Positions 14,556 to 40,323 are shown, numbered from the stretch's first letter. The stretch is DNA of 64,000 nt from Bacteroidales bacterium UBA5072 (GCA_002415855.1 DIAS01000162.1:3647-67646), one strand, 5' to 3'. Numbers and translations: made by a program. Notes: generated by a model from the letters alone, not told the origin.

Positions 14556-14647
14556 TGACCAATTGTCCCGTCCTCATTTTATGTAAAAAGAAGGATTACT
14601 TGTTATTTTTGGTGTAAGTTTACTCAGGAATCTTTTATGAAATAGAA

Positions 14648-20772: not shown

Positions 20773-23049
20773 CTATTGTTTGATAACCTTGCAGGAGATT
20801 TCCTTTCCATCAGCATCAATAGCCTTCAGAATATACAGTCCGGCAGGAACGTCCTCCATCTCCAATGCAGATTTGCTGGACACCAGTATTTTATGAATGA
20901 CTGCAGCACCACTGCCGTTCAGAATCTTTAAGTCGACTGGTAAGGTAATGTCCCTGGTGATATCCAGGTAAAGAACATGATCAAAGGGACTGGGATAAAC
21001 CAGCAATGACCCGACCGGTCGCTCGATACCGGGACCTGATGATGTCAGTACTTTATAATACGTTTTAAATACATCCGAGGCAAAATTACCCGGGCTCACT
21101 GCATTGGCAACTACCTTGACCGTCACATCGCCGGTGGCAACAGGATCAATTTTAATATTCAAACCGCCAGTATGTGTTACCGTAGCATTGGTGACCTCGA
21201 TATCATCTGCTGCAAAGCCGGTAACTGACTGATGAAAATCAATCGCAGCCGTGAAACCGGCATTTACGGTATCCGTTGCGGCAGTTGTCAAAACGGGCCT
21301 TTGGTCGACAGACAGAAGGAAAACACTGCTGGCAAAAGAAGAAGGCGTGTATTTAACCCGGAAATACAAATCAGTGCCCGGTACAAGTCCGAGTGTGCTG
21401 CCTGATCCGACATTCGGAGCGGACATGTCAGCTGAAGCAGAATATTCTACCGTTACCGGAATACTCTCGGCAGTGTGTTCAATGGAATAGTTCACGGTAT
21501 AAGCCGGGGTTGCAGGACGAACAGGAATAACCAGTGTCTGAACAGCCGAAACAAATTGCGACGAAGTTGCCTTTTTCCTGAAATACAAGGTTGATCCCGG
21601 AGTAAGGGGAATGGTGCTTCCGGTTCCGGAAACAGCCGAGGTCATGCCTGCATTATTGGCATATTCACAATCCGTTGGAACGGCCGTTGCTGTGGATTCA
21701 GTCTGGTAATTTATTGTGAAAGCTGGCGTAGAGGGTCTGGCCGGGACCGTAAGATGTTGTGTAAGGGAGGCAAAAGAGCTTGCGGTTTCCTTTACCCAGA
21801 AGTAAAGATCCTGTCCGGGCGTTAAGGTGACCGGGGCACCTGTTCCGTTGACCGGAGAGGTGTAGGAGGGTGAGGTGGAGTAAGCAACCGTGGTACTTAC
21901 GTTTTCATTGGTTCTTTCATTGACATAATTAATGGTATAGGCTGGCGTGACTGCTGTTCTTGCGGGAACAACAAGATGTTGTATGTTGGATGCAAGATAG
22001 CAATCACCACTGGCTTTGGTACGGAAATAGACATCTGTTCCGGGAGTCAGATACAAATAACTACCGGTTCCGCTGACAGCGCCCGACATGTTGGAACTGT
22101 AAGAATATTCATCCGTGGCGGGAACGGCTTTATCTGTCCTCTCGTAGGAATAATTGATACCATAGGTGGGTGTCGGCAGTTGGGTGGGGGTACAGCCGAC
22201 TCCGACGGTTACGGCCAAACTCCTTGCTGTGCTTGCACCACATCCGTTGTTTGCTGTAACGTAAATCGTTCCGCTGTTACTGCCAACTGTCGTTGTTATT
22301 GATGAGGTAGTTGAGGTTCCGGTCCAGCCTGAAGGCAGGGTCCAGGTATACGATGTGGCTCCCGAAACAGCTGATATGCTGTATGTTTCTGACGCCCCTT
22401 GGGTGGGATTGGCATTTCCGGAGATGGCCCCGGGTTGTGCAGGAGTACTGCAGCCGCCGAGATAGTTGCTCCAGCCTGAGAAGTTATGACCTGAGGCAAC
22501 TGCTACAACCACAACGCGAAGCACCAGGGGAAAGTACAAGGCCTGATTTGCCCATTCCTCCGGATTATCGGTACAAAAGGGTCCATTTCCCATGTTGTGC
22601 CCGTTTACCCACAAGGGAATCCCGTACCGCCATAATTTTGACAGGTCGGTCCAGTCGATCCCTCCATTCCAGGCTGGCAGGACAGGACTACTGAACTGGG
22701 CTGATGAACCGGGCCCTGCAAGAACGCTGCTTCTGTATCCGCAACTTTCCTGCCATGTGGTACCGTCGGTACTACGGTCCGCCCATATGCAGAAATTCAA
22801 TTGAAAAGGGGCACTGGAAGGCTGGTTAATGATCTCAAAATAATAATAAAACAGCCCGTTCTGATAGTCGTATGGATAGGTCCAGTTCATGGTAGGTGCA
22901 TTTCCATGATCGTACCAGTAGCTGTAACCGCCACAGACGTCATCATCCGCATGCCAGGTATACGTTTTGTCGTGTAACAGGAATTCCTGTGACAAGATTG
23001 CCGGCATACCCGACAGGCAGATCAAAATGATGAACAGTATTTTTTTCAT
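20773..23049 (-). CDS. T9SS-secreted family member P1: N-domain, Cys-bracketed Ig/PKD-like domain, 4 'YFR' modules, Ig-like VTNA/VTNG domain and CTD
   Basis: The real start is probably the ATG at 23049 (MKKILFIILICLSGMPAILSQEF, a signal peptide), not the track start at 23160. The N-domain ends ...LRVVVVAVASGHNFSGWSNY. The four modules are PTPTYGINYSYERTD..YFRTKASGDCYLASNIQHLVVPAR and three relatives. The CTD is LLVYPSPFDHVLYLDI...GLYILKAIDADGKEISCKVIKQ. Confidence 0.85.
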   Translation of the reverse strand: MKKILFIILICLSGMPAILSQEFLLHDKTYTWHADDDVCGGYSYWYDHGNAPTMNWTYPYDYQNGLFYYYFEIINQPSSAPFQLNFCIWADRSTDGTTWQESCGYRSSVLAGPGSSAQFSSPVLPAWNGGIDWTDLSKLWRYGIPLWVNGHNMGNGPFCTDNPEEWANQALYFPLVLRVVVVAVASGHNFSGWSNYLGGCSTPAQPGAISGNANPTQGASETYSISAVSGATSYTWTLPSGWTGTSTTSSITTTVGSNSGTIYVTANNGCGASTARSLAVTVGVGCTPTQLPTPTYGINYSYERTDKAVPATDEYSYSSNMSGAVSGTGSYLYLTPGTDVYFRTKASGDCYLASNIQHLVVPARTAVTPAYTINYVNERTNENVSTTVAYSTSPSYTSPVNGTGAPVTLTPGQDLYFWVKETASSFASLTQHLTVPARPSTPAFTINYQTESTATAVPTDCEYANNAGMTSAVSGTGSTIPLTPGSTLYFRKKATSSQFVSAVQTLVIPVRPATPAYTVNYSIEHTAESIPVTVEYSASADMSAPNVGSGSTLGLVPGTDLYFRVKYTPSSFASSVFLLSVDQRPVLTTAATDTVNAGFTAAIDFHQSVTGFAADDIEVTNATVTHTGGLNIKIDPVATGDVTVKVVANAVSPGNFASDVFKTYYKVLTSSGPGIERPVGSLLVYPSPFDHVLYLDITRDITLPVDLKILNGSGAAVIHKILVSSKSALEMEDVPAGLYILKAIDADGKEISCKVIKQ

Positions 23050-24656: not shown

Positions 24657-26804
24657 ATGAAGAAAAAATTACTCTCTGCTCCTAAAATTGCTTTGATAGC
24701 CTTGCTCTTATTATCAGCAAGATTAGCATCCGGTCAGGTGATCTTTACCAGCACGCCTGATTCGATTGCCGTTTTGAACGAACTCTACACCTATGATGTT
24801 GAAGCAGCTTCCTCTCCGAATGCTCCTGTATATTCCCTGGAGGTTGCCCCTGCCGGTATGAGCATCAACGCCTCCTCGGGTCTGATAACCTGGACACCCA
24901 CCAGTCTGACGCTGGGCGGTATGGTTAAGGTTAAAGCGGTTAACAGTGCAGGAACCTATTATCAGACTTATTATATTTATATCACAAACGCAGTATCCTG
25001 TGATGAAGCTATCATTTCATACTGGCCACTGGATGCCAAGACCGCTCAGAAATCGGTAATTGACTATGCCGGTGGTTATAATGGCTTGTGGGAAGGTGCT
25101 CCTGGTCCGGAACCAACACTCACTGATGATGCCATGGTTGACAAGGCCATAGAATTTATTCCCACATCGAACCTTGACTGGGGGTATAACATCAATGATG
25201 AAAACCAGTATGATTTTAAAGGCAACATGCCATTTTCCATATCATTCTGGTTTAAAAACAAGGCAAGCTCGGTTGTCGGTGTTACAAATAAGGAAGTTAT
25301 CGTAGGAAGATGGGCTGGTGCTGCCAGTGGAAACGCAGGTTTTAATGTTCAATGGAATCCGGTTACCTGGCGTTTAGAATTCAGGATGAGGGATACAGGT
25401 GGCACAGATACAACACTTGTCAGTTTGCAGGAAATACCTGATAATGACAACGAATGGCATCATGTTGTAGCTGCATTCTATCCCGATCCGGCAAATGACA
25501 GCTATATGCATCTATTTGTCGATGGTGTTCACACTTCGTTGCGGTATGATTTCTGGTTGGATGATTTTAGCGGTACTGAGGATGCCTACCTTGGTTACAA
25601 TTACAATTATGAATTCCCCTTCTCAGGCTTGCTCGATGAGGTTGCCATCTGGAACAAGGAGCTCGTTTCATCGGATGTCAGCTCGTTGCGTTCAAAAGGA
25701 CTAGCCGGCACACCGCTTTGCCAGGAAGGTGATGTTGCTCCCATTATTACCTCAGTTCCGGTTACGACCGGCACAGAAGACATTGATTATTCGTACAAGC
25801 TTACCTACCGTGCCATGGCTGGACACACAGTAACCATGTCAGCTCCCACGCTGCCTTCTTGGCTTTCCTTTAATTCAAGCACCGGAATGCTGACGGGCAA
25901 GCCCCTCAATGCCAATAGCGGCAATCACAATGTCACCCTGAGGATCACTGAAGGAAGCATCAACGTTGACCAGTCTTTCACCATCAATGTTACCGGTGTT
26001 AACGATCCCCCGGTATTTACTACAACTCCGGGTCTCTCCGCTATCACAAAACAACAATATACTTACATTATAAGCGCAACCGACGAGGAAGGACAAGCAC
26101 TTACCATTACCTGTCCTACCAAACCGGCCTGGTTAGCCTTTTCTGCAACCGCCGGGAATGGCGTACTCATAGGCACACCACAAAGAACTGATGCTGGAAC
26201 GGCAAATGTAACGGTGCAGGTGACCGATGGAACCACTGCGGTTCCGCAGAACTTCTCTATTGTAGTAACGCTTGACAACAACGTTCCGGTGATCACCTCT
26301 ACTGCTGTAACTTCAGGTATGACCGATGTACTTTATACCTATACCATTACGGCAACTGACGCTGATGCCGAAGCACTTACCTATAGTGCACCCACTCTGC
26401 CGGCATGGTTGAATTTCAATAGTTCCACGCATGTACTGAGCGGTATTCCGGCACAGGCTAATCTGGGCACCCATAACGTTGTTCTCGAGGTAACTGACGG
26501 CAAGGATCCGGTTCAGCAATCCTTCACGATCAATGTAGTTGCCAATGGCATTAATGACAAGGTAGGTTCACTGGCCAAGGTTTATCCCGTGCCTTCTTCA
26601 GACTTTGTCATCATGGAATTTGCTGAAAGACTAGGAAAAGCCGATCTGCAAATTCTGAGTACCTCAGGTGAACTGATGAAACGGATCGACATTTCCAACC
26701 TTTCTTCATACCGGTTGGATGTTCGTGACCTGAGACCGACCTATTACATTTACAGGATTGTTACCAGCAATGGTCAACAAACCGGCTCCATTATTGTACA
26801 GTAA
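24657..26804 (+). CDS. T9SS-secreted protein with cadherin-like/putative-Ig repeats and a LamG (concanavalin-like) domain
   Basis: There is a signal peptide. The repeats look like YTYDVEA...APAGMSINASSGLITWTP and APTLPSWLSFNSSTGMLTGKP...FTINVTGVNDPPVFT (4 by eye). The LamG-type segment ends GLLDEVAIWNKELVSSDV. The CTD is KVYPVPSSDFVIMEF...YYIYRIVTSNGQQTGSIIVQ. Confidence 0.8.
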   Translation: MKKKLLSAPKIALIALLLLSARLASGQVIFTSTPDSIAVLNELYTYDVEAASSPNAPVYSLEVAPAGMSINASSGLITWTPTSLTLGGMVKVKAVNSAGTYYQTYYIYITNAVSCDEAIISYWPLDAKTAQKSVIDYAGGYNGLWEGAPGPEPTLTDDAMVDKAIEFIPTSNLDWGYNINDENQYDFKGNMPFSISFWFKNKASSVVGVTNKEVIVGRWAGAASGNAGFNVQWNPVTWRLEFRMRDTGGTDTTLVSLQEIPDNDNEWHHVVAAFYPDPANDSYMHLFVDGVHTSLRYDFWLDDFSGTEDAYLGYNYNYEFPFSGLLDEVAIWNKELVSSDVSSLRSKGLAGTPLCQEGDVAPIITSVPVTTGTEDIDYSYKLTYRAMAGHTVTMSAPTLPSWLSFNSSTGMLTGKPLNANSGNHNVTLRITEGSINVDQSFTINVTGVNDPPVFTTTPGLSAITKQQYTYIISATDEEGQALTITCPTKPAWLAFSATAGNGVLIGTPQRTDAGTANVTVQVTDGTTAVPQNFSIVVTLDNNVPVITSTAVTSGMTDVLYTYTITATDADAEALTYSAPTLPAWLNFNSSTHVLSGIPAQANLGTHNVVLEVTDGKDPVQQSFTINVVANGINDKVGSLAKVYPVPSSDFVIMEFAERLGKADLQILSTSGELMKRIDISNLSSYRLDVRDLRPTYYIYRIVTSNGQQTGSIIVQ

Positions 26805-26995: not shown

Positions 26996-28222
26996 ATGTT
27001 TAAGAAAGTTGTCATTCTGATAGTAATTTTATCATCAGTATCGCTCTATACACTTATAATTTTTCCTGATCGTTTCATCAATGTCTTACGGCTTGCTGTG
27101 CCTGTAGCCATGTTTTTTCTGTTTCTTGTGTACAGGGTATATGACAATTCCTACCGGTTCAAACCAAAATTCAGAATCGAAGTCGGCCTGATTTTATTCT
27201 CGGTTGTTTTAAGCATGTTCGGCGCTTACTACTTCCACAAACAGGATTTTGCTGTTACTGCAGTGGCTCAAAGGTTCATTTATTTTATCATGTTTTATCC
27301 TTTGCTTCATGTCCTTAAGCCGAAACCTGAATTCCTCATTAAACTCATTATCATTCTCGGTATCTTTTATGCAGTGTTGTACATCATTCAGATTTTGATA
27401 TACCCGACTGAACTGGTCTCTGCTAAAATATTCGTAGACAGGGAGACGCTCAGGATAAGTTTACCCGGTTCAGGATTTCTTATGCTGGCCTATCTCATTG
27501 GTTTGTCGCGCCTTATCAAAACAAATAATCTCAAATACCTTCTGCTCTGCCTGCTTTCATTGATTGTTCTTGCACTCCTGGGTACAAGGCAGGTAATCGC
27601 CCCGGCTGCGCTGGTTACAATACTAAGTGTTCTATTCAGCAAAAGAGTTAAATCAAGACCCTTGATCATTGTTTTGATCGCAATTGCCACCATACCGGTA
27701 TATTTTATTTTCCTGGATATCTTCAACGCCATGTTTGAGGTATCAAAGATGCAAGCCACCAACTATCAAGGAGATATCAGGGTAAAAGCGGCTACCTTCT
27801 TCTTGCTGGATTTCTTCCCCAATACAATGTCTTATATCATCGGGAACGGTGTTCCGAGCGCTCTTTCTCCCTATGGCATAAGAATGAATGCCTATGCTAA
27901 GTTTCTCGGGTATTATCAGTCTGATATCGGGATCATTGGAGATTATACGAAGTTTGGGATATTGATCGTCATTGCCCAGATTTCGATGTATGCCCGTGTA
28001 ATGTCCAAACGTTTGCCACTGGAACTTGACTTTATCAAAAATAATTTTCTGATCGCATTGCTGACTATCTTTTTTGGCAGCTCCTTTGGATATGCCGATT
28101 ACATTGTTATTATATGTATATCACTTTATCTGATCGACACGGCTTCCTATTTCAATCCTCCCGATACAGGTGTTCCTGCTGCCGATATGCCAAATGATGA
28201 GAAGCCGATTCTGATACAGTAA
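26996..28222 (+). CDS. polytopic membrane protein, O-antigen polymerase (Wzy) or ligase-like
   Basis: The 408-aa protein has about 10-11 hydrophobic segments, is AT-rich and sits next to a flippase-like gene in a glycan locus. I recognised no diagnostic motif, so the call rests on context and topology. Confidence 0.5.
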   Translation: MFKKVVILIVILSSVSLYTLIIFPDRFINVLRLAVPVAMFFLFLVYRVYDNSYRFKPKFRIEVGLILFSVVLSMFGAYYFHKQDFAVTAVAQRFIYFIMFYPLLHVLKPKPEFLIKLIIILGIFYAVLYIIQILIYPTELVSAKIFVDRETLRISLPGSGFLMLAYLIGLSRLIKTNNLKYLLLCLLSLIVLALLGTRQVIAPAALVTILSVLFSKRVKSRPLIIVLIAIATIPVYFIFLDIFNAMFEVSKMQATNYQGDIRVKAATFFLLDFFPNTMSYIIGNGVPSALSPYGIRMNAYAKFLGYYQSDIGIIGDYTKFGILIVIAQISMYARVMSKRLPLELDFIKNNFLIALLTIFFGSSFGYADYIVIICISLYLIDTASYFNPPDTGVPAADMPNDEKPILIQ

Positions 28223-28240: not shown

Positions 28241-29674
28241 TTGATAAAAAGGATATTTAATAACGCCACCCTGATGTCCTGGGCTTCCTATTTCGTTCAA
28301 TTTGGAAGCGTGCTTTTTATTTTTCCCTTATTGATCAAGGTATATTCACCACTTGAACAGTCATTCTGGTGGCTGCTGAACACAATCATCGGTTTGGCAA
28401 TGCTTGCCGATTCAGGTTTTGGGGCAGTATTGCTGAGAGGTGTTGCCTATTTCAGCTCCGGTGCAGATTATCTGCCACGCAACAGGGAAGAATTCGAAAA
28501 GAAACAAGATCTCCTTAGTTTCCAGCCGAATGTTAACAAGCTTGCCGACCTTCTGACAACAACAAAAAGAGTATATGCTTACCTCAACCTGGTTCTGATA
28601 GGCATGCTGATCACCCTGGGCCCGCTGATCATGTGGAACGTGATGAAACTTTCACATCACCGGATCGATTTCTGGATTGCTTACCTGTTATTGATCCCAA
28701 ATTGCATGCTGCTGATCATGACAGTGAGATGGAGATCATTTTTGCGGGGATTGGATTATGTTGCCAAGGAAGCAAGAATAAACACCTACCTTGGCGTTGC
28801 CCGGCTGACCGGTTTTATAGTGTTCCTGTCTTTTGGACTTTCTCCCGTGTACCTGATCATCTGTATGCTGGCTGAATCAGCAATCAAGTATTTTATCCTA
28901 AAAGATCTTGTTATCAGATGGTTCAGGGCAAACAACAAAATCATCACAAACAGGAATTATTTTGATAAAGATATATTCAAGTCGCTTTGGACAGCCACCT
29001 GGAAGGAAGGTCTTATCCAATGGGGTAATTACCTGTTGGCTTCGGGAAACTCAATCATTATGGCCCAGATAAGCAATGCACAGCTAATGGCCAACTTCCT
29101 GTTAACCACACGACTACTCACCATTATAGCCAGTGTTTCTGAAATAACGCTCTTCTCGAATATTCCAAGGATCTATAGCTATGCCGCAAAAAACGACCGG
29201 CATAACATGAAGATAACCGCTGCGGGATACATGTTCCTGGGCATGGCCATTATGGTAATATCCTGTTTGTTCATTATTCTTTTCGGCAATACAGCGCTGG
29301 AAATGCTCAATAAGGAATCACAGCTCGTACCCATGGGAATTCTGATCATTATGGTTCTCACCCAAATACTGGACAGTCATTCAACCTTTCATGCCGGCAT
29401 TTATATTTCTACCAACCATATTCCTTTTGTGCTGCCTTCCCTCATTTCGGGTGTTGTAATCCTGGGTGGCGGATTTCTGGTCTTGCCCAGGTATGGCCTG
29501 ATGGGAATAATAATGATGAAATTCGTGGTTCAGCTTGCCTTTAGCAATTGGTACGCAATGGTTTTATCCCTTCGTTTATTGAAATGGCCGATAAAAAACT
29601 ACTTATGGGAATTTCCGGTACTGGGCAGCAAATTCGTATATGCTAAGATCAAATCATTCTTTAACTTATCTTAG
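28241..29674 (+). CDS. polytopic membrane protein, oligosaccharide flippase (Wzx/MOP-like)
   Basis: The 477-aa protein has about 12-14 TM segments and sits in a glycan locus. The track start is a TTG; an ATG 11 codons downstream (MSWASYF) is an alternative. Confidence 0.55.
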   Translation: MIKRIFNNATLMSWASYFVQFGSVLFIFPLLIKVYSPLEQSFWWLLNTIIGLAMLADSGFGAVLLRGVAYFSSGADYLPRNREEFEKKQDLLSFQPNVNKLADLLTTTKRVYAYLNLVLIGMLITLGPLIMWNVMKLSHHRIDFWIAYLLLIPNCMLLIMTVRWRSFLRGLDYVAKEARINTYLGVARLTGFIVFLSFGLSPVYLIICMLAESAIKYFILKDLVIRWFRANNKIITNRNYFDKDIFKSLWTATWKEGLIQWGNYLLASGNSIIMAQISNAQLMANFLLTTRLLTIIASVSEITLFSNIPRIYSYAAKNDRHNMKITAAGYMFLGMAIMVISCLFIILFGNTALEMLNKESQLVPMGILIIMVLTQILDSHSTFHAGIYISTNHIPFVLPSLISGVVILGGGFLVLPRYGLMGIIMMKFVVQLAFSNWYAMVLSLRLLKWPIKNYLWEFPVLGSKFVYAKIKSFFNLS

Positions 29675-30422
29675 TCAGATAATATGCAGATTGGAAATCA
29701 ATTTCCGTTCTGTGTTCAAAACTGTCGATTCTGAAGCCCTGCTCGCTTATTAACTTCTCAAAGAAGTTCTTTTCGTACCTCACAATCTGACGGGGATAGG
29801 TAAAGGTCATCAGGTAGTTTTCAGGATTCTCTTCCATATCTGGAACATCTTCCTCGACAAAAGAGGTAAGAAACAGCCTTCCGCCGATCTTTAACATCCT
29901 GTTGAAATCCTTCAACAGGATCAGCACTTCTGAATCAATATAATTGGGAATTACGCCAGTAGCATATACCAGATCAAAATAACCAGTCTCGTAAGGAAAT
30001 CTGAAGTTCTCATTCATCTCGATCTTACCATTCGGATTGTACATGACATGTTTCAGATCGAAATAATGAAAATTGTAATTCGGGTTCTCCTTTGCCAGGT
30101 ATTTTTTGCACCAGTCAATATTCCACTGGTTAATGTCGATCCCGATATAATAAATATCAGGTACCTTTTGCACAAGGCCGATAAACGACCTGCCGGTGGT
30201 ACAACCAATTTCAAGAATCCTTGTTTTGTCCGTGACGCCCAACCTTTGGGTGAATTTAATACCTTCCATTACCGTAGACTCATAGAACAGTTTATCACTC
30301 CGGTATGCTTCGCGCAGGTACCTGCTGTCGCGTGGCGGCAGTAAAACACCTTTGTAGATATGATAATTTTTCCTCAGTCTCCGCTTAATTGATCCTGCCA
30401 ATTTTGACCATAGTTCTCTCAT
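29661..30422 (-). CDS. class I SAM-dependent methyltransferase (paralog B)
   Basis: SAM motif I is ILEIGCTTGRS, followed by IGIDIN. It is colinear with paralog A, sharing blocks such as YKG..LPP, FHY.DL, YNPNG, DVPDM.ENPE.Y and TYPRQIVR.EKN.F. Its 3' end overlaps the convergent Wzx-like gene by 14 bp. Confidence 0.7.
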   Translation of the reverse strand: MRELWSKLAGSIKRRLRKNYHIYKGVLLPPRDSRYLREAYRSDKLFYESTVMEGIKFTQRLGVTDKTRILEIGCTTGRSFIGLVQKVPDIYYIGIDINQWNIDWCKKYLAKENPNYNFHYFDLKHVMYNPNGKIEMNENFRFPYETGYFDLVYATGVIPNYIDSEVLILLKDFNRMLKIGGRLFLTSFVEEDVPDMEENPENYLMTFTYPRQIVRYEKNFFEKLISEQGFRIDSFEHRTEIDFQSAYYLTKIS

Positions 30423-30511: not shown

Positions 30512-30589
30512 CAAAGGATTTTAGACTGGTGTGCTTGAAGCAAGGCAATAATTCCAGTAGCCTTCAGTTTATTAATTGATCAGTGATTG

Positions 30590-31480
30590 ATGAAACAAAA
30601 CGTAAAAAATATTGCAGAGCATTATTTCATCGTATTGCTGGGCTTCTTTTCCCTGATATCGCAGTGTGCCCGGAGCGGTGAATTCCTGATCATTGACAAA
30701 GCCATTACATGGGACGAAAATGCCCAAAGTGCTTTCTATATGTTCATGCCCGATGCCACCATGCCTTCCAACTGGATGTACCCGGACGATTATTATAACG
30801 GCATGATATATACCCGTTATGAGATACTGGAAGTAGCCACCCGTATACCCTGTGGAATGCAATTCGGCATATTTCAATGGAAAGATGCCAATCACACGGT
30901 CTGCGGTGAGTTGTGCGAAAACATCAGGTGGCTGGAAAATGGCACCGGTTCGGTAGCCGAAAATGGAAGCAGTCCTTCTACCTGGTGGGAGTCATATGGT
31001 GGTGTCGATTTCTCCAAAATCAGTGATCTTCAGAGTCTGAGCCCTACAATCTGGAGCAAGGATCCAAGATCGCCCATTGCCAGGCCCGGACAGGGAGGCG
31101 ATGATGCAGGTGAAGCCTGGAGATTGCGCTATAACTGGTTCCCGATAACGGTAAGAGTCACTGTTGTGGCTGTTTCCGCAGGTTCTGCCTTCTCAGGCTG
31201 GGATTACTATATTGGAAATACGCCTCCGAATTCCGACGTATTCGAAAAATACTTACTGGTTTATCCTAACCCGGGTTCCGATGGTCTGTTCAACATTCAA
31301 ACGGACATAGAACCTCCATTTACACTGGAAGTCCTGTCAACAGATGGTAAGATACTAAAGAGCACAACAGTACAGGAAACACTGAATCCTGAACTCAGCT
31401 TGCAGGAACTGAACCAGGGGATCTATATCATCAGAGTTTTGGGTAATAACTTCACTGTTGCACGCAAGATCATCCGGTAG
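30590..31480 (+). CDS. T9SS-secreted family member P2 (minimal form: N-domain plus CTD only)
   Basis: The ATG at 30590 lies one codon inside the track's TTG start. A signal peptide is followed by the N-domain GEFLIIDKAITWDENA...MPSNWMYPDDYYNGMIYTRYEI...GIFQW...GELCE...SSPSTWW..GGVDFS...YNWFPITVRVTVVAVSAGSAFSGWDYY. The CTD follows directly: LLVYPNPGSDGLFNIQ...GIYIIRVLGNNFTVARKIIR. Confidence 0.85.
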   Translation: MKQNVKNIAEHYFIVLLGFFSLISQCARSGEFLIIDKAITWDENAQSAFYMFMPDATMPSNWMYPDDYYNGMIYTRYEILEVATRIPCGMQFGIFQWKDANHTVCGELCENIRWLENGTGSVAENGSSPSTWWESYGGVDFSKISDLQSLSPTIWSKDPRSPIARPGQGGDDAGEAWRLRYNWFPITVRVTVVAVSAGSAFSGWDYYIGNTPPNSDVFEKYLLVYPNPGSDGLFNIQTDIEPPFTLEVLSTDGKILKSTTVQETLNPELSLQELNQGIYIIRVLGNNFTVARKIIR

Positions 31481-31628: not shown

Positions 31629-34433
31629 ATGAAAACTCCTTGCAGAAGCTTTACAAAATTCCTGTTGTCCTCCATGGCGGTTCTCCTGTTATGCGTTCCC
31701 CAGGATGTAAACAGCGCCGAGTTTGTTGTTATCAACAGAATAATCTCTTACGATATCAATGCATCCAGTGGATTCTGGTCATTTGGTATGAATGCCAGCA
31801 TGCCGGCAAACTGGGCATCGCCCAATGACTATTACCACGGGACTTTTTACACCCGTTATGAAATACTGAGTGTTCCGACGAATGTTCCATGCGGGATACA
31901 AATGGGTATTTTTCAGTGGCAGGGAGCCCATAATGATTCCTGCGGTGAGTTATGCGAGAGCATACGTGGTCCGCTGGCAGGTGTCGGAGCTGTTGTTACC
32001 AACAGCAGCAGCCCATCAACCTGGTGGCGTACTGAGGGCGGAGTCGATTTTTCCCGAATGAGCTACCTTGAAAGCATGGCCATTGTCCTCTATTCGTGGG
32101 ACACAAGGTATCCGGTAGCCCAGGCGGGACAAGGTGGTGATGCTGGCGGGATAAGCTGGAACCAGCGCTTCAACTGGTTCCCGATCACCCTCAGGGTTAC
32201 GGTTGTTGCTGTATCGTCAGGTTCCACCTTTTCCGGGTGGGACAATTATATACCCAATCCTGCCCTGCAAAAGCCCACTCCTGCATATGGCATTGATTAT
32301 ATCAATGAAACCACGGACAAGGTGGTTCCCGCAACAGATGAATACGCCCTGTTTCCGACAATGTTTGGCCGAGTAAGTGGCAGCGGTCAGAAAATGACCC
32401 TGATTCCCGGACGGGATGCATACTTTCGTACAAAGGCCGGAGACGGTTTACGCCAATCCGAGATCCAGCATTTTGATGTGCCCTGCAGGCCTGCCACTCC
32501 GAAATTTATTATGGATAAGGTCAACTACCGGACAACAACTACTGTGAGCAGTGAATATGAGTATTCTGATTATTCGGATATGTCTGAGGCTGTTACCGGG
32601 AACGGCACCTATGTTTCAATCCCCGCCGGAACAACCAAGTTCTTCAGAAAGAAGGCCACAGTTACTTCCTTTAAATCAGAAATCCAGGCACTGAACGAAT
32701 CATCCAAATCAGCTATACCACATGAACTTCTTGTTTTCAATGGTGTGATTGACTATCCGAATACAACGGATACCAATGGTTTTTACTATTTCTATTATAA
32801 TGCCGACATGCCCAAAGACTGGACAACGCCTGATAATTATTACAACGGAAATTTTTATATGCGTTATGAAATTATCAGCCAGAAAACTTCTACTCCGGTT
32901 GGTATGCAATTTGGATTGTGGCAGCTTCTGCCACCAGAAACAGGAGAATTGCATGAAACCATGTCTGGAATCACAACACTGAATGGCCCCGGCAGCTATG
33001 CAACTGCCGTCAGTAGTCCAAGTTCCTGGTGGAGACTGGATGGAGGATTTGATTATACCAAGATGGATCTCACCTGGCATATGGGTATAAATCCATGGAA
33101 GTTAGATAGCTATAATGGCAACCTTCAAATCAGGCAGGAAAACGCCAGTGTGTGGGCAGAAAGAAATACATACTGGTTTCCCATGAAGGTATATGTCACC
33201 ATTGTGGCGGTTGCTTCAGGATATTCCTTTTCAGGATGGAACAACTACCTGGGTGTGAAATATCCAACCCCGGCATATACCATCAATTATACAACCGAGA
33301 AAACAAGCCAGGTGGTTCCTGCAACCGACGAGTATTCCTATTCGCCAACCATGTCTCCTGCATATCCGGGCACAGGTGCTACGATAGACCTGTTACCGGG
33401 ACAGAATGTTTATTTCCGTACAAAGGCACAGGGAAGATTCCTGACATCAGATATCCAGCGCCTGGTTGTTCCGGAAAGACCAGCGCCGGTGTATACCGTA
33501 AACTACCAGGAGAAAAAGACCAACGAACCTGTTTCGGTGAACGATGAATATTCGACCAGCCCGGACATGACAGGTGCTTACGTGGGTACAGGTTCCACAA
33601 TCACCATTACCCCGGGTACCGATCTTTATTTCAGAACCAAGGCTACAACGTCTTCTTTCCGATCTGCAATCCAGCATCTGGTTGTACCCACCGTACCAGC
33701 GCCGCCGGCTTTTACCATTAATTATGACTTGGGCACCACGAATGAAACAGCCGGGACCAACATTGCCATTTCAAATTATGCAAATTTCTCCGGCCAGATC
33801 TTTGGCACCGGGACGTTTGTGACACTTGTACCCGGACAGGATTTGTACTTTAAACAGGTTGCCACAGGTTCATCTTTTGGCAGTGATGCTTCACACCTGG
33901 TGGTTCCGGCCTGCAACTTCCTCGGCTATTCCGGTGCAGACACCGTTACGTCAAGCAAGTTCACGGTGTATGCTATTCTCACCGATCAATCTCATGTACT
34001 GACCTTGGCCGATATCCAGGTGACCAACGGAACCGCACAGAACCTGCGTACCGGTAATGTGTTCGACATTTACCCGGCATCAAAGGGTTGGGTTACAGTT
34101 GTTATACCGGCGAATTCCATCAGTGAGAACTCCTTTGCCTCCAATGAAGTACGTGCCTATTACAATGTGGTAACAGGAGTAGATGAAATTACGGACATTG
34201 ATTTCGAAGTTTTTCCCAATCCCAGCTTCGACGGCCTGGTACAAATAAGGAACAATCGGCGAAAGGACTACCAGGTATGCGTTTACAATGTGAACGGGAA
34301 CATGACAAAGACTTTTGAAGTAAATGGAGGCGGCGATCAGCTGATCGACATGCGGGCTTACCCGAAGGGGATGTACTTCCTTCAGATAAGCTCGGATAAT
34401 TACACCCGTTTGCACAAGATCATTTTACAATAA
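31629..34433 (+). CDS. T9SS-secreted family member P3: N-domain, 2 modules, second N-domain, 3 modules, Ig-like VTNG domain and CTD
   Basis: There is a signal peptide. N-domain copy 1 runs AEFVVINRIISYD...FSGWDNY and copy 2 runs HELLVFNGVIDYP...FSGWNNY. The modules are of the PTPAYGIDYINETTD..YFRTKA type. The Ig-like block is CNFLGYSGADTVTSSKFTVYAILTDQSHVLTLADIQVTNGTAQNL. The CTD is FEVFPNPSFDGLVQI...GMYFLQISSDNYTRLHKIILQ. Confidence 0.87.
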   Translation: MKTPCRSFTKFLLSSMAVLLLCVPQDVNSAEFVVINRIISYDINASSGFWSFGMNASMPANWASPNDYYHGTFYTRYEILSVPTNVPCGIQMGIFQWQGAHNDSCGELCESIRGPLAGVGAVVTNSSSPSTWWRTEGGVDFSRMSYLESMAIVLYSWDTRYPVAQAGQGGDAGGISWNQRFNWFPITLRVTVVAVSSGSTFSGWDNYIPNPALQKPTPAYGIDYINETTDKVVPATDEYALFPTMFGRVSGSGQKMTLIPGRDAYFRTKAGDGLRQSEIQHFDVPCRPATPKFIMDKVNYRTTTTVSSEYEYSDYSDMSEAVTGNGTYVSIPAGTTKFFRKKATVTSFKSEIQALNESSKSAIPHELLVFNGVIDYPNTTDTNGFYYFYYNADMPKDWTTPDNYYNGNFYMRYEIISQKTSTPVGMQFGLWQLLPPETGELHETMSGITTLNGPGSYATAVSSPSSWWRLDGGFDYTKMDLTWHMGINPWKLDSYNGNLQIRQENASVWAERNTYWFPMKVYVTIVAVASGYSFSGWNNYLGVKYPTPAYTINYTTEKTSQVVPATDEYSYSPTMSPAYPGTGATIDLLPGQNVYFRTKAQGRFLTSDIQRLVVPERPAPVYTVNYQEKKTNEPVSVNDEYSTSPDMTGAYVGTGSTITITPGTDLYFRTKATTSSFRSAIQHLVVPTVPAPPAFTINYDLGTTNETAGTNIAISNYANFSGQIFGTGTFVTLVPGQDLYFKQVATGSSFGSDASHLVVPACNFLGYSGADTVTSSKFTVYAILTDQSHVLTLADIQVTNGTAQNLRTGNVFDIYPASKGWVTVVIPANSISENSFASNEVRAYYNVVTGVDEITDIDFEVFPNPSFDGLVQIRNNRRKDYQVCVYNVNGNMTKTFEVNGGGDQLIDMRAYPKGMYFLQISSDNYTRLHKIILQ

Positions 34434-34538: not shown

Positions 34539-37500
34539 ATGAGAAAACCTGTTTACACATTACAACGGTTAATCCTGATACTTCTGTTGTTGCTGTCGAT
34601 GAGATATTCCCAGGGAAGCGAGTTTGTCCTTATGAACAGGATCATATCCTATGATGTCAATGCTTCGGACGGTTTCTGGCTTGTAATGCCTGATGTCACA
34701 ATGCCCTCAAACTGGTTTACACCCGATAATTATTATTACGGTACAATTTACAGCAGGTATGAGATAATAAGCGCTCCCACCAGTGTGCCCTGTGCCATCG
34801 GCTGGGGATTCTTCCAATACAAAAACCCCCAGCAAACCGAACTCGGTGAGCTGTGTGAGCTGGCGCCAACCCTCGCCGGTACGGGAGCGGTTGCCTACAA
34901 AACGAGCAGTCCCTCCACCTGGTGGAGGACCGACGGAGGGGTGGATTTCTCAAAAATCGCTGATATGCAGAGTATGGGGGTTATCCTTTACTCAAAGAAT
35001 CCGGGTGATGGCAACGGCTGGCCGGTTTGCAGGTCAAACAATGGAGGCGATCCGGGAGGTATTACCTGGAATGAACGATTCAACTGGTTCCCGATGACCA
35101 TACGGGTCACTGTGGTAGCAGTATCCAATGGTTCAACCTTTTCCGGCTGGGACAGGTATGTTATTGATCCTTCGCGCAGGCAGCCTAAAACTGCATACGG
35201 AATTGATTTTATCAACGAAACCACGGACAGGGTAGTTCCTTCCACCGATGAGTTTTCAATATATTCGGGCATGGCCTATGCCGTTTCGGGCACGGGACAA
35301 CGGATGCCCATCACCCCCGGGCAGGATCATAATTTCAGGACAAAGGCCGGATCGGGTCTTCTGGCATCGGAAGTACAGCATTTCCGCGCCCCCGTGAGAC
35401 CCGGAACACCTGCTTTTGTATTGGACAAGGTCAACCACCGGACTACTACCGGGGTTTCAGGTGAGTATGAATATTCCGACAATCCGGATTTTACGGGAGC
35501 CGTTACCGGTACCGGAAGCCAGGTCAATATCCCTGCAGGCACTACGATGTACTTTCGCAAAAAAGCCACTGCCATCGCGTTCCGATCAACCGTACAGGCC
35601 CTGAACGAGTCGTCGGAGCTGCCGATTGCACATGAGCTGCTGCTCATCAACGACACCATTGAGTGGCCAAATGCCACCGATACGAACGGATTTTATTATT
35701 TCTATTACAATGCCGATATGCCGGCCAACTGGATAACACCTGACGATTATCATTACGGGGAGATATTTGCCCGTTACGAGATCATCAGTGAAAAAACCGA
35801 GGAAACCGTGGGTCTCCAGACAGGATTTTGGCAGATGCTTCCCCCGGAGACGGGTGAGTTGCACGAAACCATGTCGCCGATGGCCGTAATGAACGGCACC
35901 GGATCGGTAGTTACTGTGCGCAGCAGCCCCTACCAATGGTGGAAACTTACCAGCGGTTTCGATTATACACAGATGGACCGCACCTGGCACCTGGGTATCA
36001 ATCCCTGGAAGGTTGACCCAACCGATAACAGCAGGCTTCAGATCAGGCAGGAAAATTCATCGGTTTGGGCTGAACGCAATTCCAAATGGTTCCCGATGAA
36101 AGTATATGTTACCATTGTTGCTGTGGCTGCCTACCGGGAATTCTCAGGATGGCAGCATTATGTCAATTACAGCGCCAAAAGGAAAAGAGCCATGCCATCC
36201 ATCGGCATTGACTATATAAACGAGCAAACTAACCTGGTAATCCCTGATTCCGTTGAATATGCGTACGACGCCGGAATGTCGGGAGCAAGGAACGGCAGCG
36301 GGCAGAGACTGGCACTGACCCCTGGCAATGATGTGTATTTCAGAACGAGGGCCGGCATTGGGAATTATGCTTCCGACATCCTCCACCTGGTGGTTCCTGC
36401 AAATCCCCCGGCACCCGCAGTGACAATTAATTATGCAGGCGAGACCACAGCTGTACTTACACCCGGCACGGAATGGTCAGTTAACGCAGATATGTCGGGT
36501 GCCGTATCGGGAACGAATACAGCCATCCAGGTTACACCCGGTACGCACCGCTATTTCAGAAACAAGGCAACCGCCTCTGCCTTCAGGTCGGGTATCCAGG
36601 ATCTTTATATTCCGGTCAGGCCCGCAGCACCTGAAATTTCCATAAATTTTGCCGGCAATAGCACCGCTGTCATTCCATCCACCATGGAATGGGCCTTTAA
36701 CGCTACCATGATTCCGGCAGCCCGTGGACAGGGTATTACCGTACCGGTAACTCCCTCTGTAGATATGTATTTCAGGTCAGTCGCAACAGCCTCCGCATTC
36801 CGTTCAGAGATCCAACACCTTGTTGTTCCAGCCCTTCCCGCAACACCGGCCTATGGCATCAACTTCGTGCAACAAACAACCAACATTCCGGTTTCCGCAA
36901 ATGATGAGTATGCTTTTTCAGCGGATATGTCGGGTGCGGTTGCCGGCAGCAACACAGCGGTTAACGTAACACCGGGAATTGACATGTACTTCAGGCGCAA
37001 AGCCTCGGCAACTGCATTCCGATCGCTCATACAAACATTGGATGTACCTGCAAAACCAGCATCCCCGGCATTTACCATAAATTACACGGACGGTACTACC
37101 AACGAAGCGGCCGGAACGGATATAGCCTTTTCGGGTTATGCGGATATGGCTGGTCAGGTTTTTGGAACCGGAGTACCCGTGACGCTGCAGCCGGGTCACG
37201 ACCTGTACTTCAAACAGGTTGCCGGTTCAACATCCTTTACCAGTGATATTTCATTCCTGGCAGTGCCCTTCTGCAACTTCCTCGGCTATTCGGGCGCGGA
37301 TACCGTTACATCAAGCAAGTTCACGCTCTATGCTATTCTCACCGATCAGTCCCATGTACTGACATTAGCCGATATCCAGGTGACCAACGGAACCGCACAG
37401 AATCTCAGGGCCGGAAATGTATTCGATGTTTATCCTTCGGTTAAAGGTCCGGTATCAGTTGTTATTCCTGCAAACACGATTGCCGATAATACATTTGCCT

Positions 37501-37793
37501 CGAATGAGGTAACTGTTTATTACAATGTAGCTACGGGCCTTGCGGAATATGAAAAGGACAATATCAGTATCTATCCGAATCCAAGTGATGACGGGATCAT
37601 CTTCATACAGACCAATCAAAACAGGCCTTATTTGATAGGTATATATTCCCTTGATGGTCACCTGATGAAAACCCTGGAAATGCCTGACGGAGGAACGCGA
37701 CAGATCGATCTCAGCGATTTTCAGAAAGGCATGTATTTCCTGAAAGTAAGTTTACAAAACAATAACCGTATACACAAAATAATCTTGAATTAA
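34539..37793 (+). CDS. T9SS-secreted family member P4: N-domain, 2 modules, second N-domain, 5 modules, Ig-like VTNG domain and CTD
   Basis: It has the same architecture as P3 with two extra modules. The CTD is ISIYPNPSDDGIIFIQ...GMYFLKVSLQNNNRIHKIILN. Confidence 0.87.
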   Translation: MRKPVYTLQRLILILLLLLSMRYSQGSEFVLMNRIISYDVNASDGFWLVMPDVTMPSNWFTPDNYYYGTIYSRYEIISAPTSVPCAIGWGFFQYKNPQQTELGELCELAPTLAGTGAVAYKTSSPSTWWRTDGGVDFSKIADMQSMGVILYSKNPGDGNGWPVCRSNNGGDPGGITWNERFNWFPMTIRVTVVAVSNGSTFSGWDRYVIDPSRRQPKTAYGIDFINETTDRVVPSTDEFSIYSGMAYAVSGTGQRMPITPGQDHNFRTKAGSGLLASEVQHFRAPVRPGTPAFVLDKVNHRTTTGVSGEYEYSDNPDFTGAVTGTGSQVNIPAGTTMYFRKKATAIAFRSTVQALNESSELPIAHELLLINDTIEWPNATDTNGFYYFYYNADMPANWITPDDYHYGEIFARYEIISEKTEETVGLQTGFWQMLPPETGELHETMSPMAVMNGTGSVVTVRSSPYQWWKLTSGFDYTQMDRTWHLGINPWKVDPTDNSRLQIRQENSSVWAERNSKWFPMKVYVTIVAVAAYREFSGWQHYVNYSAKRKRAMPSIGIDYINEQTNLVIPDSVEYAYDAGMSGARNGSGQRLALTPGNDVYFRTRAGIGNYASDILHLVVPANPPAPAVTINYAGETTAVLTPGTEWSVNADMSGAVSGTNTAIQVTPGTHRYFRNKATASAFRSGIQDLYIPVRPAAPEISINFAGNSTAVIPSTMEWAFNATMIPAARGQGITVPVTPSVDMYFRSVATASAFRSEIQHLVVPALPATPAYGINFVQQTTNIPVSANDEYAFSADMSGAVAGSNTAVNVTPGIDMYFRRKASATAFRSLIQTLDVPAKPASPAFTINYTDGTTNEAAGTDIAFSGYADMAGQVFGTGVPVTLQPGHDLYFKQVAGSTSFTSDISFLAVPFCNFLGYSGADTVTSSKFTLYAILTDQSHVLTLADIQVTNGTAQNLRAGNVFDVYPSVKGPVSVVIPANTIADNTFASNEVTVYYNVATGLAEYEKDNISIYPNPSDDGIIFIQTNQNRPYLIGIYSLDGHLMKTLEMPDGGTRQIDLSDFQKGMYFLKVSLQNNNRIHKIILN

Positions 37794-38028: not shown

Positions 38029-40323
38029 ATGAAACCCCAATTTACACTTTACAGAAAATTCCTTTGCATCCTGTTTCTGGGGATTTTCCCGCTGTTCATT
38101 TATAACGTAAAAAGCGCAGAATTTGCGATCATCAACGGCACTTATTATTATCCATCCAGTGCCAATGCCTTTTACTGTCATGCTTCTCCTCCTTACGCCA
38201 ACTATCCATCTACAAACTGGCTTTCGCCCAATGATTTCTGGAACGGCACATTCTATGCCTATTATGAAGTAATCGATATACCTACTAACGAACCTTTCGC
38301 CATGCAGTTGGGAATTTTTCAATATTACCCCAATGCGGCAAACTGGGATTACCAGAATTTCTATGAGACATGTTCGCTGGTTTTTCCTCAGCTTCAGGGA
38401 GCAGGCTCATATGCTGAGGTAAATTGCGGCTCACCGGCCAACTGGTGGCAGCATCCAAACGGGGCAGTGGATTTTACCAGGGTGTATGACTTTGAAAGCG
38501 TTGGTCCGGTAATGTATAGCCGTACAGCCGGTGCCTATGGAATTTTGTACCCGCCGGATGCTGCTGCATGGGCCGTGCGTGCGAATTATTTCCCATGCAC
38601 CATCCGGGTAATCGTGGTTGCGGTTTCTGCCGGATCACAGTTTTCAGGATGGGCCAATTACATCAACGGCGGTGGCGGAGGCGGTGGTTGTACACCTGTG
38701 CAACAGGCCACGCCAACCTATGCAATCAATTTTGCCACTGAAAGAACCAACAAGGTCGTTCCAACTACAGACGAGTATTCTTACAATTCCAACATGTCAG
38801 GTGCAGTAAGCGGCACCGGGTCCACCCTTTTGCTTACGCCCGGTCAGGATGTATATTTCCGTACCAAGGCCAGTGGTGATTGTTATCTGGCTTCCAACAT
38901 TCAGCATCTTGATGTACCCACCCGGCCTGCAGGCACTCCTTCTTATTCTATTGATTATTACAACGAACGAACCAATGAGACTGTGAGTTCCACTGTCGCC
39001 TATTCAACAACTCCCAATTTTACCTCTCCGGTGAGCGGTACCGGTGCAACGGTTAACTTAACACCCGGACAAGACCTGTACTTCTGGGTGAAAGAAACCT
39101 CCAGCACCTTTGCTTCTGACGTTTATCATCTTCCGGTTCCTGCCCGTCAGCAAACACCTGCAATAACGGTTGATTTTAACAACGAGGTCACCTCAGCCGT
39201 TTCATCTGCGCAGGAATGGTCTACCAGCGCTTCCATGACTTCTCCAACCACAGGTACCAATGCCGCATTACCGGTCTCACCCGGTACGAACCTTTATTTC
39301 CGGACAAAGGCGACAGCAAGTGCATTCTTATCTGCTGTGCAAACCCTGAACGTACCTGCCCGTCCCGCAACTCCGACTTACGGAATCGATTATGCAACGG
39401 AAAAAACATCACAGGCTGTTCCTGCAACAGATGATTATTCTGTACATTCCGATATGTCATCCGCCTCAGCCGGAACCGGAGCTGCTATAACACTGACTCC
39501 CGGCACGGACCTGTATTTCAGAACCAGGAACAGTGCCAGTTCCTTCCGGTCAGCAACTCAGCACCTGACAGTTGCCGCACGACCTGCAACACCATCATTC
39601 CATATCGATTATGGCAATGAAACCACCTCAGAAACAGTAGGTGGCACAATTGAGTATGCTGCCACCGCAGATATGACATCACCAGCGTCAGGTACAGGAG
39701 TAAAACTTCCCCTTACACCGGGTGAGGACCTCTATTTCAGGGTAAAATCAACCGGATCATCATTCGCCAGCCAGAATTACCAGCTGGACGTACCGGCACG
39801 ACCAACCCTGGAATACACAGGGGAGGACACCGTAACCTCCGCAACCATTACCATGCATGCCTTACTGGATGCCGGCATGACAGGATTCGACCTCAATGAT
39901 TTGTCGGTTACCAATGGCATCGCCCAGAATTTAAGGGCCGCAAATTATTTCGACGTCATCGGGCAGAACAAGGGTGATGTCACAGTAATCATTCCGGTTA
40001 ATAAATTTGGTGGAGCAAGCTTTGCTTCCAATGAAGTGGTTGTTTATTACAATAAATCAGCTACCGGGATATCGGAAGAAAATGAGGATGGTTTTATTGT
40101 CTATCCCAATCCGAATGGCAGCGGTATCCTGTATATCCGTGCAAGACAGGTTACCCCCTATTCCATTGAAGTTTTTTCAGCTGACGGTAATCTGGTCAAA
40201 ACTGTCCTCATGGACAAGGGAGAAGAACAACCCCTTGACCTGAAGGAACTGACAAAAGGCATATACTTCCTGAAATTTCAAACAAAAGAAAGTCATTCGG
40301 TGGTAAAGGTTGTCCTGAAATAG
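38029..40323 (+). CDS. T9SS-secreted family member P5: N-domain, Gly7 linker, 5 modules, Ig-like VTNG domain and CTD
   Basis: There is a signal peptide. The N-domain runs AEFAIINGTYYYP...FSGWANY and is followed by GGGGGGGC. The modules are ATPTYAINFATERTNK...YFRTKASGDCYLASNIQHL and four relatives. The CTD is FIVYPNPNGSGILYI...GIYFLKFQTKESHSVVKVVLK. Confidence 0.87.
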   Translation: MKPQFTLYRKFLCILFLGIFPLFIYNVKSAEFAIINGTYYYPSSANAFYCHASPPYANYPSTNWLSPNDFWNGTFYAYYEVIDIPTNEPFAMQLGIFQYYPNAANWDYQNFYETCSLVFPQLQGAGSYAEVNCGSPANWWQHPNGAVDFTRVYDFESVGPVMYSRTAGAYGILYPPDAAAWAVRANYFPCTIRVIVVAVSAGSQFSGWANYINGGGGGGGCTPVQQATPTYAINFATERTNKVVPTTDEYSYNSNMSGAVSGTGSTLLLTPGQDVYFRTKASGDCYLASNIQHLDVPTRPAGTPSYSIDYYNERTNETVSSTVAYSTTPNFTSPVSGTGATVNLTPGQDLYFWVKETSSTFASDVYHLPVPARQQTPAITVDFNNEVTSAVSSAQEWSTSASMTSPTTGTNAALPVSPGTNLYFRTKATASAFLSAVQTLNVPARPATPTYGIDYATEKTSQAVPATDDYSVHSDMSSASAGTGAAITLTPGTDLYFRTRNSASSFRSATQHLTVAARPATPSFHIDYGNETTSETVGGTIEYAATADMTSPASGTGVKLPLTPGEDLYFRVKSTGSSFASQNYQLDVPARPTLEYTGEDTVTSATITMHALLDAGMTGFDLNDLSVTNGIAQNLRAANYFDVIGQNKGDVTVIIPVNKFGGASFASNEVVVYYNKSATGISEENEDGFIVYPNPNGSGILYIRARQVTPYSIEVFSADGNLVKTVLMDKGEEQPLDLKELTKGIYFLKFQTKESHSVVKVVLK

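Follow-up and report, generated by a model that had tools for sequence, protein, structure and literature searches.

A previously undescribed domain of putative type IX-secreted surface proteins encoded in a Bacteroidales polysaccharide-synthesis cluster

The 64,000-nucleotide stretch of DNA from Bacteroidales bacterium UBA5072 analysed here (GCA_002415855.1, DIAS01000162.1:3647-67646), referred to below as the window, is a polysaccharide-synthesis cluster that holds six genes, P1 to P6, whose products are annotated as 'hypothetical protein' in every public source. These products share a domain, called here the N-domain, which represents a real, well delimited and previously undescribed family of a familiar kind; no description of it was found in the literature searched. 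The N-domain might be a new, non-catalytic module resembling lectins or carbohydrate-binding modules (CBMs), carried at the far end of stalks anchored by way of a type IX secretion system (T9SS), where it would bind a glycan, perhaps the polysaccharide of the locus itself. This reading is held tentatively, its chances being put at slightly under even.

The N-domain is a real, constrained and autonomous unit, the reference copy of which is that of P2. Translation of P2 from its TTG codon gives a product of 297 residues, and from the ATG codon chosen by gene callers one of 296; residue numbers throughout follow the longer form. By inspection, its signal peptide comprises a basic n-region followed by the hydrophobic stretch YFIVLLGFFSLI. 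Coverage of P2 by Pfam and NCBIfam is confined to its last 72 residues, a T9SS type A C-terminal sorting domain (CTD) that scores 38.5 bits with PF18962 (cutoff 27) and 43.6 with TIGR04183 (cutoff 23). In the original prediction, made from the same DNA, P2 was described as a signal peptide, an N-domain and a CTD and no more, and this layout is confirmed, with a linker of 10 residues between the last two. An identical copy of the protein is on record in nine metagenomic contigs, wetland-sediment samples among them. Relative to its ortholog in the metagenomic locus L016 (77% identity), the ratio of nonsynonymous to synonymous substitution rates (dN/dS) was about 0.04 in the N-domain, compared with 0.11 in the CTD and 0.10 in the signal peptide; dS is saturated (about 2), which makes these figures rough.

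Seven more copies of the N-domain were found in the window with that of P2 as tblastn query (E-values from 1e-64 to 1.5e-14; next match, E = 2.1). The identical eight copies were retrieved by a family-wide hidden Markov model (HMM), built from 53 diverse members and applied without filters to the six-frame translation (domain E ≤ 2e-52; following match, E = 1.6), in agreement with the predicted distribution of one copy each in P1, P2, P5 and P6 and two each in P3 and P4. These copies are 32-56% identical to that of P2 and have 22 invariant columns. P2 had been said to set natural edges for the domain, and a second, independent definition gives matching sharp edges: the internal copies of P3 and P4 are abutted by repeats of 73 residues, one of which ends in P3 at residue 362 and the next of which starts at residue 547, on either side of an N-domain spanning residues 363-546, and P4 is organized likewise. 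The aromatic richness noted at the outset was also borne out, as Trp accounts for 4.9% of the N-domain versus 1.3% of the other open reading frames of the window, and Trp, Tyr and Phe together for 14-20% versus 11%. Regarding the predicted motifs, the domain and its conservation stand, but several strings were mistyped or over-counted (fits in 3/8, 5/8 and 2/8 copies, compared with the eight or seven asserted). Thus, the strict pattern NW..P.(D/N)Y..G..Y..YE(I/V) occurs in three of the eight copies and fits all of them only in the form [ND]W..P.[DN][YF]..G..[YHF]..[YF]E[IV]. E(L/T)(C/H)E, claimed for seven copies, was found in five, and in the second copies of P3 and P4 (P3b and P4b) the string does not line up with the invariant Glu. 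SSP..WW is present in five copies, or in seven if loosened to [SG]SP..WW; the terminal motif given as (F/Y)(F/W)P correctly reads (W/Y)FP, and the spacing of HELL(V/L)..N was wrong by one. The reported loss of the terminal-motif Gly from the second copy of P4 is genuine, Gly199 being replaced by Tyr.

Searches of Pfam, NCBIfam, PHROGs, PDB profiles and Foldseek yielded no confident placement of the N-domain in a known family; the original prediction would have failed on such a placement. In P1-P6, Pfam detected only CTDs and immunoglobulin (Ig)-like domains and left the N-domain without a match; with 53 diverse instances, no Pfam family was matched by more than two members at E ≤ 1. Neither the described CBM and lectin families of Pfam nor its jelly-roll glycanases and lyases (GH11/12/16, PL7/14/18/20) gave a match, and none was obtained from NCBIfam or PHROGs. 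Against the chain sequences of the PDB, profiles of eight and of 53 sequences retrieved at best a WW domain (E = 0.15). Kinship with the PL14 lyase domain encoded in the same locus was rejected (hhalign probability 0.5%), and the idea of a domain similar to lytic polysaccharide monooxygenases was dropped, as the N-domain has no N-terminal His and is also found at internal and C-terminal positions.

The AlphaFold2 model of the N-domain, obtained from a 19-sequence alignment, has nine strands and one helix (predicted local distance difference test, pLDDT, 91.6; predicted template modelling score, pTM, 0.87), and the predicted fold is a jelly-roll-type β-sandwich without a close solved relative. 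Among the 50 best of 1525 Foldseek matches in the PDB, to which the results below refer, none reached E ≤ 0.001 and none was a glycanase or a lyase. The highest template modelling (TM) score was that of the CBM30 module 1wmx_B (TM 0.43, root-mean-square deviation (rmsd) 5.3 Å, probability 0.98), and superposition on a solved CBM at TM > 0.5 was not reached. The analogy with carbohydrate-binding β-sandwiches drawn at first is compatible with the predicted fold and the identity of the best TM match, but the match is weak and the analogy unproven. The lowest E-values (1e-3 to 1e-2) were those of jelly rolls from picornavirus capsids (TM 0.27-0.37, rmsd about 10 Å), and the picture obtained with BFVD agrees. 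Because such single-jelly-roll capsid proteins self-assemble, they would suit an N-domain that mediates protein-protein contacts or self-association, the stalk tips binding each other or another surface protein in cell-cell adhesion or in a surface lattice; the presence in one locus of six paralogs that share a tip domain, and their adhesin-like combination of stalk and anchor, are also consistent with such a role. Nevertheless, the capsid matches, with TM values near 0.3, reflect general topology only, PHROGs offered no match, and the CBMs, esterase and lyase found in relatives, as well as the polysaccharide loci, point to glycans, so that self-association is given only a small chance. A viral origin was rejected on the same TM values, the cellular polysaccharide-synthesis neighbors and the PHROGs result.

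The family extends far beyond the window. An exhaustive profile search among 1.84 billion cluster representatives returned 951 of them at E ≤ 0.001, of which 433 reached E ≤ 1e-10 and 134 reached E ≤ 1e-30, although the weakest of the 951 need not all carry an N-domain because columns of the signal peptide, linker and CTD were part of the query profile as well. A word-indexed homolog search, with its 15-24 short proteins, badly under-reports the family. According to an HMM made from nothing but the eight copies of the window, the N-domain is present in all 160 public relatives considered (150 from the exhaustive search plus earlier matches), and the architecture counts given below refer to these and P1-P6, i.e., to 166 proteins with 141 near-full-length instances. 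The family is found in T9SS cargo of Bacteroidota and in high-GC lineages that use other sorting signals. The commonest layout of relatives is an N-domain followed by Ig-like repeats and a T9SS CTD, and tandem, internal, C-terminal and stand-alone copies also occur. Among the 105 longer relatives, 62 have a T9SS CTD, and Ig-like, PKD, FG-GAP and LamG modules predominate among the remaining domains; no recognized catalytic domain was detected in P1-P6 or in most of these 105 proteins.

The position of the N-domain bears on whether it might be an N-terminal pro-region, an intramolecular chaperone, or else an element connected with secretion and cut off after export. Most instances (112/141) begin within the first 60 residues, straight after the signal peptide, as would be expected of such an element. 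On the other hand, 29 are internal, C-terminal or in tandem, 14 proteins contain two or three copies (P0053 and P0115 being examples of tandem copies), and the internal copies of P3 and P4 are framed by repeats. Furthermore, the N-domain is the sole domain besides sorting signals in P2 and in proteins of 216-218 residues from a distant lineage, which leaves nothing to chaperone, and purifying selection acts on it more strongly than on the CTD. The pro-region idea was rejected on architecture, namely the internal, C-terminal and stand-alone copies, and retains next to no probability; that the domain is a self-contained, mobile module, as claimed at the outset, is supported by these minimal proteins and displaced copies.

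Residue conservation was computed over the 141 instances, in clusters at most 50% identical to each other. The conserved positions are Glu32 (93%), Trp63 (98%), Pro66 (95%), Gly72 (100%), Arg77 (91%, with Tyr in 8%, P1, P5 and P6 included), Glu79 (93%), Glu108 (96%), Gly119 (89%), Gly121 (93%), Trp133 (84%), Trp134 (85%), Asp141 (86%, with Asn in a further 10%), Trp178 (88%), Pro186 (99%), Val194-Ala-Val196 (92%, 87% and 99%), Phe202-Ser-Gly-Trp205 (94-100%) and Tyr208 (82%). The conserved Trp, Tyr, Glu, Arg, Asp and Gln residues are of the type found in sugar sites, and many of them fall in loops. Tyr75, Arg77 and Glu79 alternate along strand 2 of the model, which places them on one face, probably in a surface patch since charged residues are unlikely in the core. 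The replacement of Arg77 by Tyr in P1, P5 and P6 may represent a specificity switch between paralogs. Where two copies occur in tandem in one chain, both keep the family-conserved residues, with the exception of Gly199 in P4b.

The company that the N-domain keeps in its relatives can be read in two ways. In P0109 (domain, SGNH esterase, PL14 lyase) and P0150 (PKD, domain, PKD, SGNH), it stands beside real catalytic domains, where a CBM would sit. In others, no catalytic candidate is apparent besides the domain itself: it follows a CBM4_9 module and a Pro-rich linker in P0166 and P0174 and two F5/8-C modules in P0124, and it lies between CBM96 and the CTD in P0095. It is preceded by a Pro/Thr linker in P0167, P0168 and P0172, and followed by Big_7 and a Cys-rich C-terminal anchor in P0161, from a high-GC genome. 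Five tandem paralogs with a C-terminal domain are encoded in a distant lineage, outside any recognizable polysaccharide locus (L013, positions 10001..15324 of GCA_964398825.1, 65% GC); one consists of a Pro/Thr linker and the domain, two of CBM4_9 and the domain, and the two proteins of 216-218 residues mentioned above of a signal peptide and the domain only. This array of small secreted proteins, with or without a CBM, resembles families of secreted enzymes. The main rival reading is that the N-domain might be a small catalytic module belonging to a new family, a glycoside hydrolase, a polysaccharide lyase or similar, that would trim or remodel the polymer of the locus or an environmental glycan, with conserved carboxylates on neighboring strands of a jelly-roll cleft as catalytic residues; Glu32, Glu79 and Glu108 (93-96%), Arg77 and Asp141 are the conserved residues in question. 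In size and in aromatic content it is reminiscent, by way of analogy, of small jelly-roll glycanases. Catalysis is nevertheless considered unlikely, given the lack of an enzyme family match in Pfam, NCBIfam and the PDB sequences (E ≤ 1, 53 diverse members), the lack of glycanases or lyases among the 50 best Foldseek matches, and the hhalign result with the PL14 domain of the window. In addition, residue-conserving tandem duplicates and stalks of up to 14 repeats are more typical of binding modules, and in P0109 and P0150 the domain shares a chain with established catalytic domains.

The stalks are made up of the 73-residue repeat, of which P1 and P3-P6 contain 35 copies with the consensus xPxYxINYxxExTxxxVxxTxEYSxxxxMxxAxxGTGxxxxLTPGxDxYFRxKATxxxFxSxxQxLxVPxRPA. 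It has no match in Pfam, its predicted structure is a small β-sandwich (pLDDT 89.4), and its structural matches, to Ig/FN3 and biofilm-associated-protein modules, are weak (best E = 0.57); it is a second undescribed module. A block formed by the N-domain and two such repeats is duplicated in both P3 and P4, which points to a segmental duplication that preceded the split between P3 and P4; the relatives P0016-P0023 have the same layout. A run of Gly residues followed by Cys-Thr/Ser-Pro was observed after the N-domain in P5 (GGGGGGCTP), P6 and P1 (GGPCTP, GGCST); it is absent from P2-P4. At the other end of the proteins, the CTDs of P3-P6 score 43.8-47.2 bits with PF18962 (cutoff 27), and that of P1 falls below the cutoff with this profile (22.6 bits) but exceeds that of TIGR04183 (30.2 bits, cutoff 23). 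By inspection, all six N-termini are hydrophobic, with small residues directly ahead of the conserved Glu-Phe. No por, gld or spr genes, which encode the T9SS machinery, were found in the 64-kb window.

From these features, P1-P6 would be exported by Sec by means of their signal peptides, and would then cross the outer membrane through a T9SS that recognizes the type A sorting domain detected by HMM. In Porphyromonas gingivalis, the CTD of type A cargo is cleaved, and the new C-terminus is linked to anionic lipopolysaccharide (LPS) (PMC5445135). If P1-P6 are processed as characterized cargo are, their C-termini would be tied to LPS at the cell surface and the N-domain would form the distal end of each protein, since type A cargo attach by the processed C-terminus (PMC5445135). 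The N-domain of P2 would lie directly on the surface, and those of P1 and P3-P6 on stalks of 4 to 14 small β-sandwich repeats, with two binding units each in P3 and P4. Polysaccharide would be contacted by a conserved polar and aromatic surface comprising the Tyr75-Arg77-Glu79 patch, Glu108, the loop residues Trp63, Trp133/134 and Trp178, and the FSGW motif. In this manner, P1-P6 may tether or organize the polymer of the cluster around the cell, in parallel with RemA of Flavobacterium.

Glycan recognition fits best with the arrangement of distal domain, stalk and anchor, the conserved tandem copies, the enzyme neighbors in some relatives, the Trp, Tyr, Glu and Arg residues, and the polysaccharide loci. 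The genes lie inside a cluster for Wza, Wzc, flippase, polymerase and glycosyltransferases, both here and in four related Bacteroidales loci, which makes the polymer of the cluster the most economical ligand. Tandem arrays of N-domain genes were found in loci of Bacteroidales metagenome-assembled genomes (L001, L002, L003) and in metagenomic loci (L011, L016, L020, L021) with a 5-copy alignment as query; where flanks are present (L001, L002, L003, L011, L016), the arrays adjoin glycosyltransferase, flippase, polymerase, methyltransferase or Wza/Wzc genes homologous to those of the window. L012 is a frameshift-ridden assembly that gives no usable context. Several observations weigh against glycan recognition. 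The likeness to any CBM is weak, and the lowest Foldseek E-values belong to virus capsids; distant members (L013, L015, L027, L028) lie outside recognizable polysaccharide loci; and the near-invariant Glu residues at positions 32, 79 and 108, with Arg77 and Asp141, would suit an active site too. In addition, some relatives have only a known CBM and the domain (CBM4_9 in P0166/P0174, F5/8-C in P0124, CBM96 in P0095), and the unknown part of a carbohydrate-active protein with such a layout is usually the catalytic one.

A broader proposal is that the N-domain might found a new carbohydrate-active family, of CBMs or of small glycanases or lyases, that is devoted to the polysaccharide of the cell itself. 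P1-P6 would in that case make up a tethering system anchored by the T9SS, in which identical tip domains, held at graded distances from the outer membrane, would capture, space or trim the capsule or exopolysaccharide (EPS) of a Wzx/Wzy-type locus, the Arg/Tyr77 switch tuning the sugar recognized. The numbers of stalk repeats in such a system would be 0, 4, 5, 5-7 and 14, with two tips on P3 and P4. This proposal is considered doubtful.

The other genes of the window include those for a rhamnose-pathway epimerase, methyltransferases, a PIG-L deacetylase, acyltransferases, GT2 and GT4 glycosyltransferases, flippase- and polymerase-like membrane proteins, two WecA-like transferases, Wza, Wzc and UDP-glucose dehydrogenase (features with coordinates are collected in Table 1). 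The WecA-like initiating transferases form a tandem pair, which may reflect two priming sugars or a recent duplication. Two paralogous S-adenosylmethionine (SAM)-dependent methyltransferases adjoin P1 and P2, respectively; beside P2, this arrangement is preserved in L001, L011 and L016. In the same three loci, two polytopic membrane proteins without a Pfam match are also kept beside P2; their position and hydrophobic sequence suggest that they are the polymerase and flippase of the locus.

Table 1. Features of the window and their coordinates (N-domain copies a and b, first and second copy of the same protein)
Feature	Position	Strand	Residues	Remarks
P1 gene	20773..23160	-	795 aa
P1 N-domain	22444..22995	-	56-239	most divergent copy
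P1 stalk	21292..22173	-		4 x 73-aa repeat
P1 T9SS CTD	20785..21000	-
P2 gene	30587..31480	+		TTG start 30587 or ATG 30590, through stop
P2 signal peptide	30587..30670	+	1-28	by inspection
P2 N-domain	30671..31228	+	29-214	186 aa; reference copy
P2 Arg77 codon	30815..30817		77	Tyr in P1, P5, P6
P2 linker			215-224	10 aa
P2 T9SS CTD	31259..31474	+	225-296	type A; PF18962, TIGR04183
P3 gene	31629..34433	+
P3 N-domain copy a	31710..32267	+	28-213
P3 N-domain copy b	32715..33266	+	363-546	internal; 73-aa repeats on either side
P3 stalk repeats	32277..32714 and 33267..33917	+		2+3 x 73-aa repeat
P3 T9SS CTD	34209..34424	+
P4 gene	34539..37793	+
P4 N-domain copy a	34611..35177	+	25-213
P4 N-domain copy b	35625..36179	+	363-547	internal; Gly preceding FSGW replaced
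P4 stalk repeats	35190..35618 and 36192..37274	+		2+5 x 73-aa repeat
P4 T9SS CTD	37569..37784	+
P5 gene	38029..40323	+
P5 N-domain	38110..38679	+	28-217
P5 Gly run and Cys-Thr-Pro	~38668..38691		214-221
P5 stalk	38710..39807	+		5 x 73-aa repeat
P5 T9SS CTD	40099..40314	+
P6 gene	40441..44703	+
P6 N-domain	40519..41100	+	27-220
P6 stalk	41119..44187	+		14 tandem 73-aa repeats
P6 T9SS CTD	44479..44694	+
T9SS cargo	5786..12289	-	2167 aa	DUF4886 + ~19 fn3 repeats
SAM-dependent methyltransferases	19877..20641 and 29661..30422	-		paralogs, 48% identical
T9SS cargo	24657..26804	+		He_PIG x4 + LamG
Polytopic membrane proteins	26996..28222 and 28241..29674	+		no Pfam match; putative polymerase and flippase
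T9SS cargo	50997..53966	+		PL14 lyase + fn3 + LamG
WecA-like transferases (PF00953)	55199..56419 and 56827..58044	+		tandem pair, 76% identical

New β-sandwich domains without an assigned function are common on bacterial surface proteins, and the N-domain family breaks no known rule. It is absent from Pfam, NCBIfam and the PDB despite its hundreds of cluster representatives (951 at E ≤ 0.001). Should a ligand be found, a new family of CBMs or lectins, or one of enzymes, would be gained, and with it a means to study how uncultured Bacteroidales of sediments retain or shape their extracellular polysaccharide. Residues 29-214 of P2 are the natural minimal construct for expression.

Among known systems, the capsid proteins VP2 and VP3 of picornaviruses have the lowest Foldseek E-values, in both the PDB and BFVD, and the same general strand topology as the N-domain. 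They differ from it by their low similarity (about 10% identity, with the TM and rmsd values given above), and P1-P6 are cellular proteins with a signal peptide and a T9SS sorting domain. CBM30 (PDB 1wmx), which has the top TM-score among the 50 best of 1525 matches, is a β-sandwich of similar size (176 aligned columns), and CBMs of this type are likewise modular, mobile, found in tandem and, as in some N-domain relatives, placed beside catalytic domains. In contrast, sequence identity is 8%, the TM-score is below 0.5, the N-domain matches no solved or Pfam CBM profile, and in the window it is attached to no enzyme. The vps-rbm region of Vibrio cholerae reportedly encodes secreted proteins composed of β-sandwich and lectin modules, RbmA, RbmC and Bap1, whose genes lie among polysaccharide-synthesis genes and which bind and organize the corresponding polymer. 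Their likeness to P1-P6 would be one of shared logic only, as they belong to another phylum, depend on the type II rather than the type IX secretion system, have other folds and show no homology.

A parallel may also be drawn with RemA of Flavobacterium johnsoniae, described as a mobile surface lectin that is delivered by the T9SS, attaches to EPS made by the same cell and brings about aggregation (PMC8481357 citing Shrivastava 2012; PMC5445135). The lectin domain of RemA comes from a known family, whereas the N-domain matches no Pfam lectin family; RemA is a gliding adhesin, and no link to motility was seen for P1-P6; and here six paralogs, with a putative binding domain, are encoded inside a biosynthesis locus. 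What the two systems would have in common is a Bacteroidota surface protein that reaches the cell exterior through the T9SS, a long repetitive body that bears a sugar-binding domain, and the synthesis of an EPS that needs Wza/Wzc-type genes.

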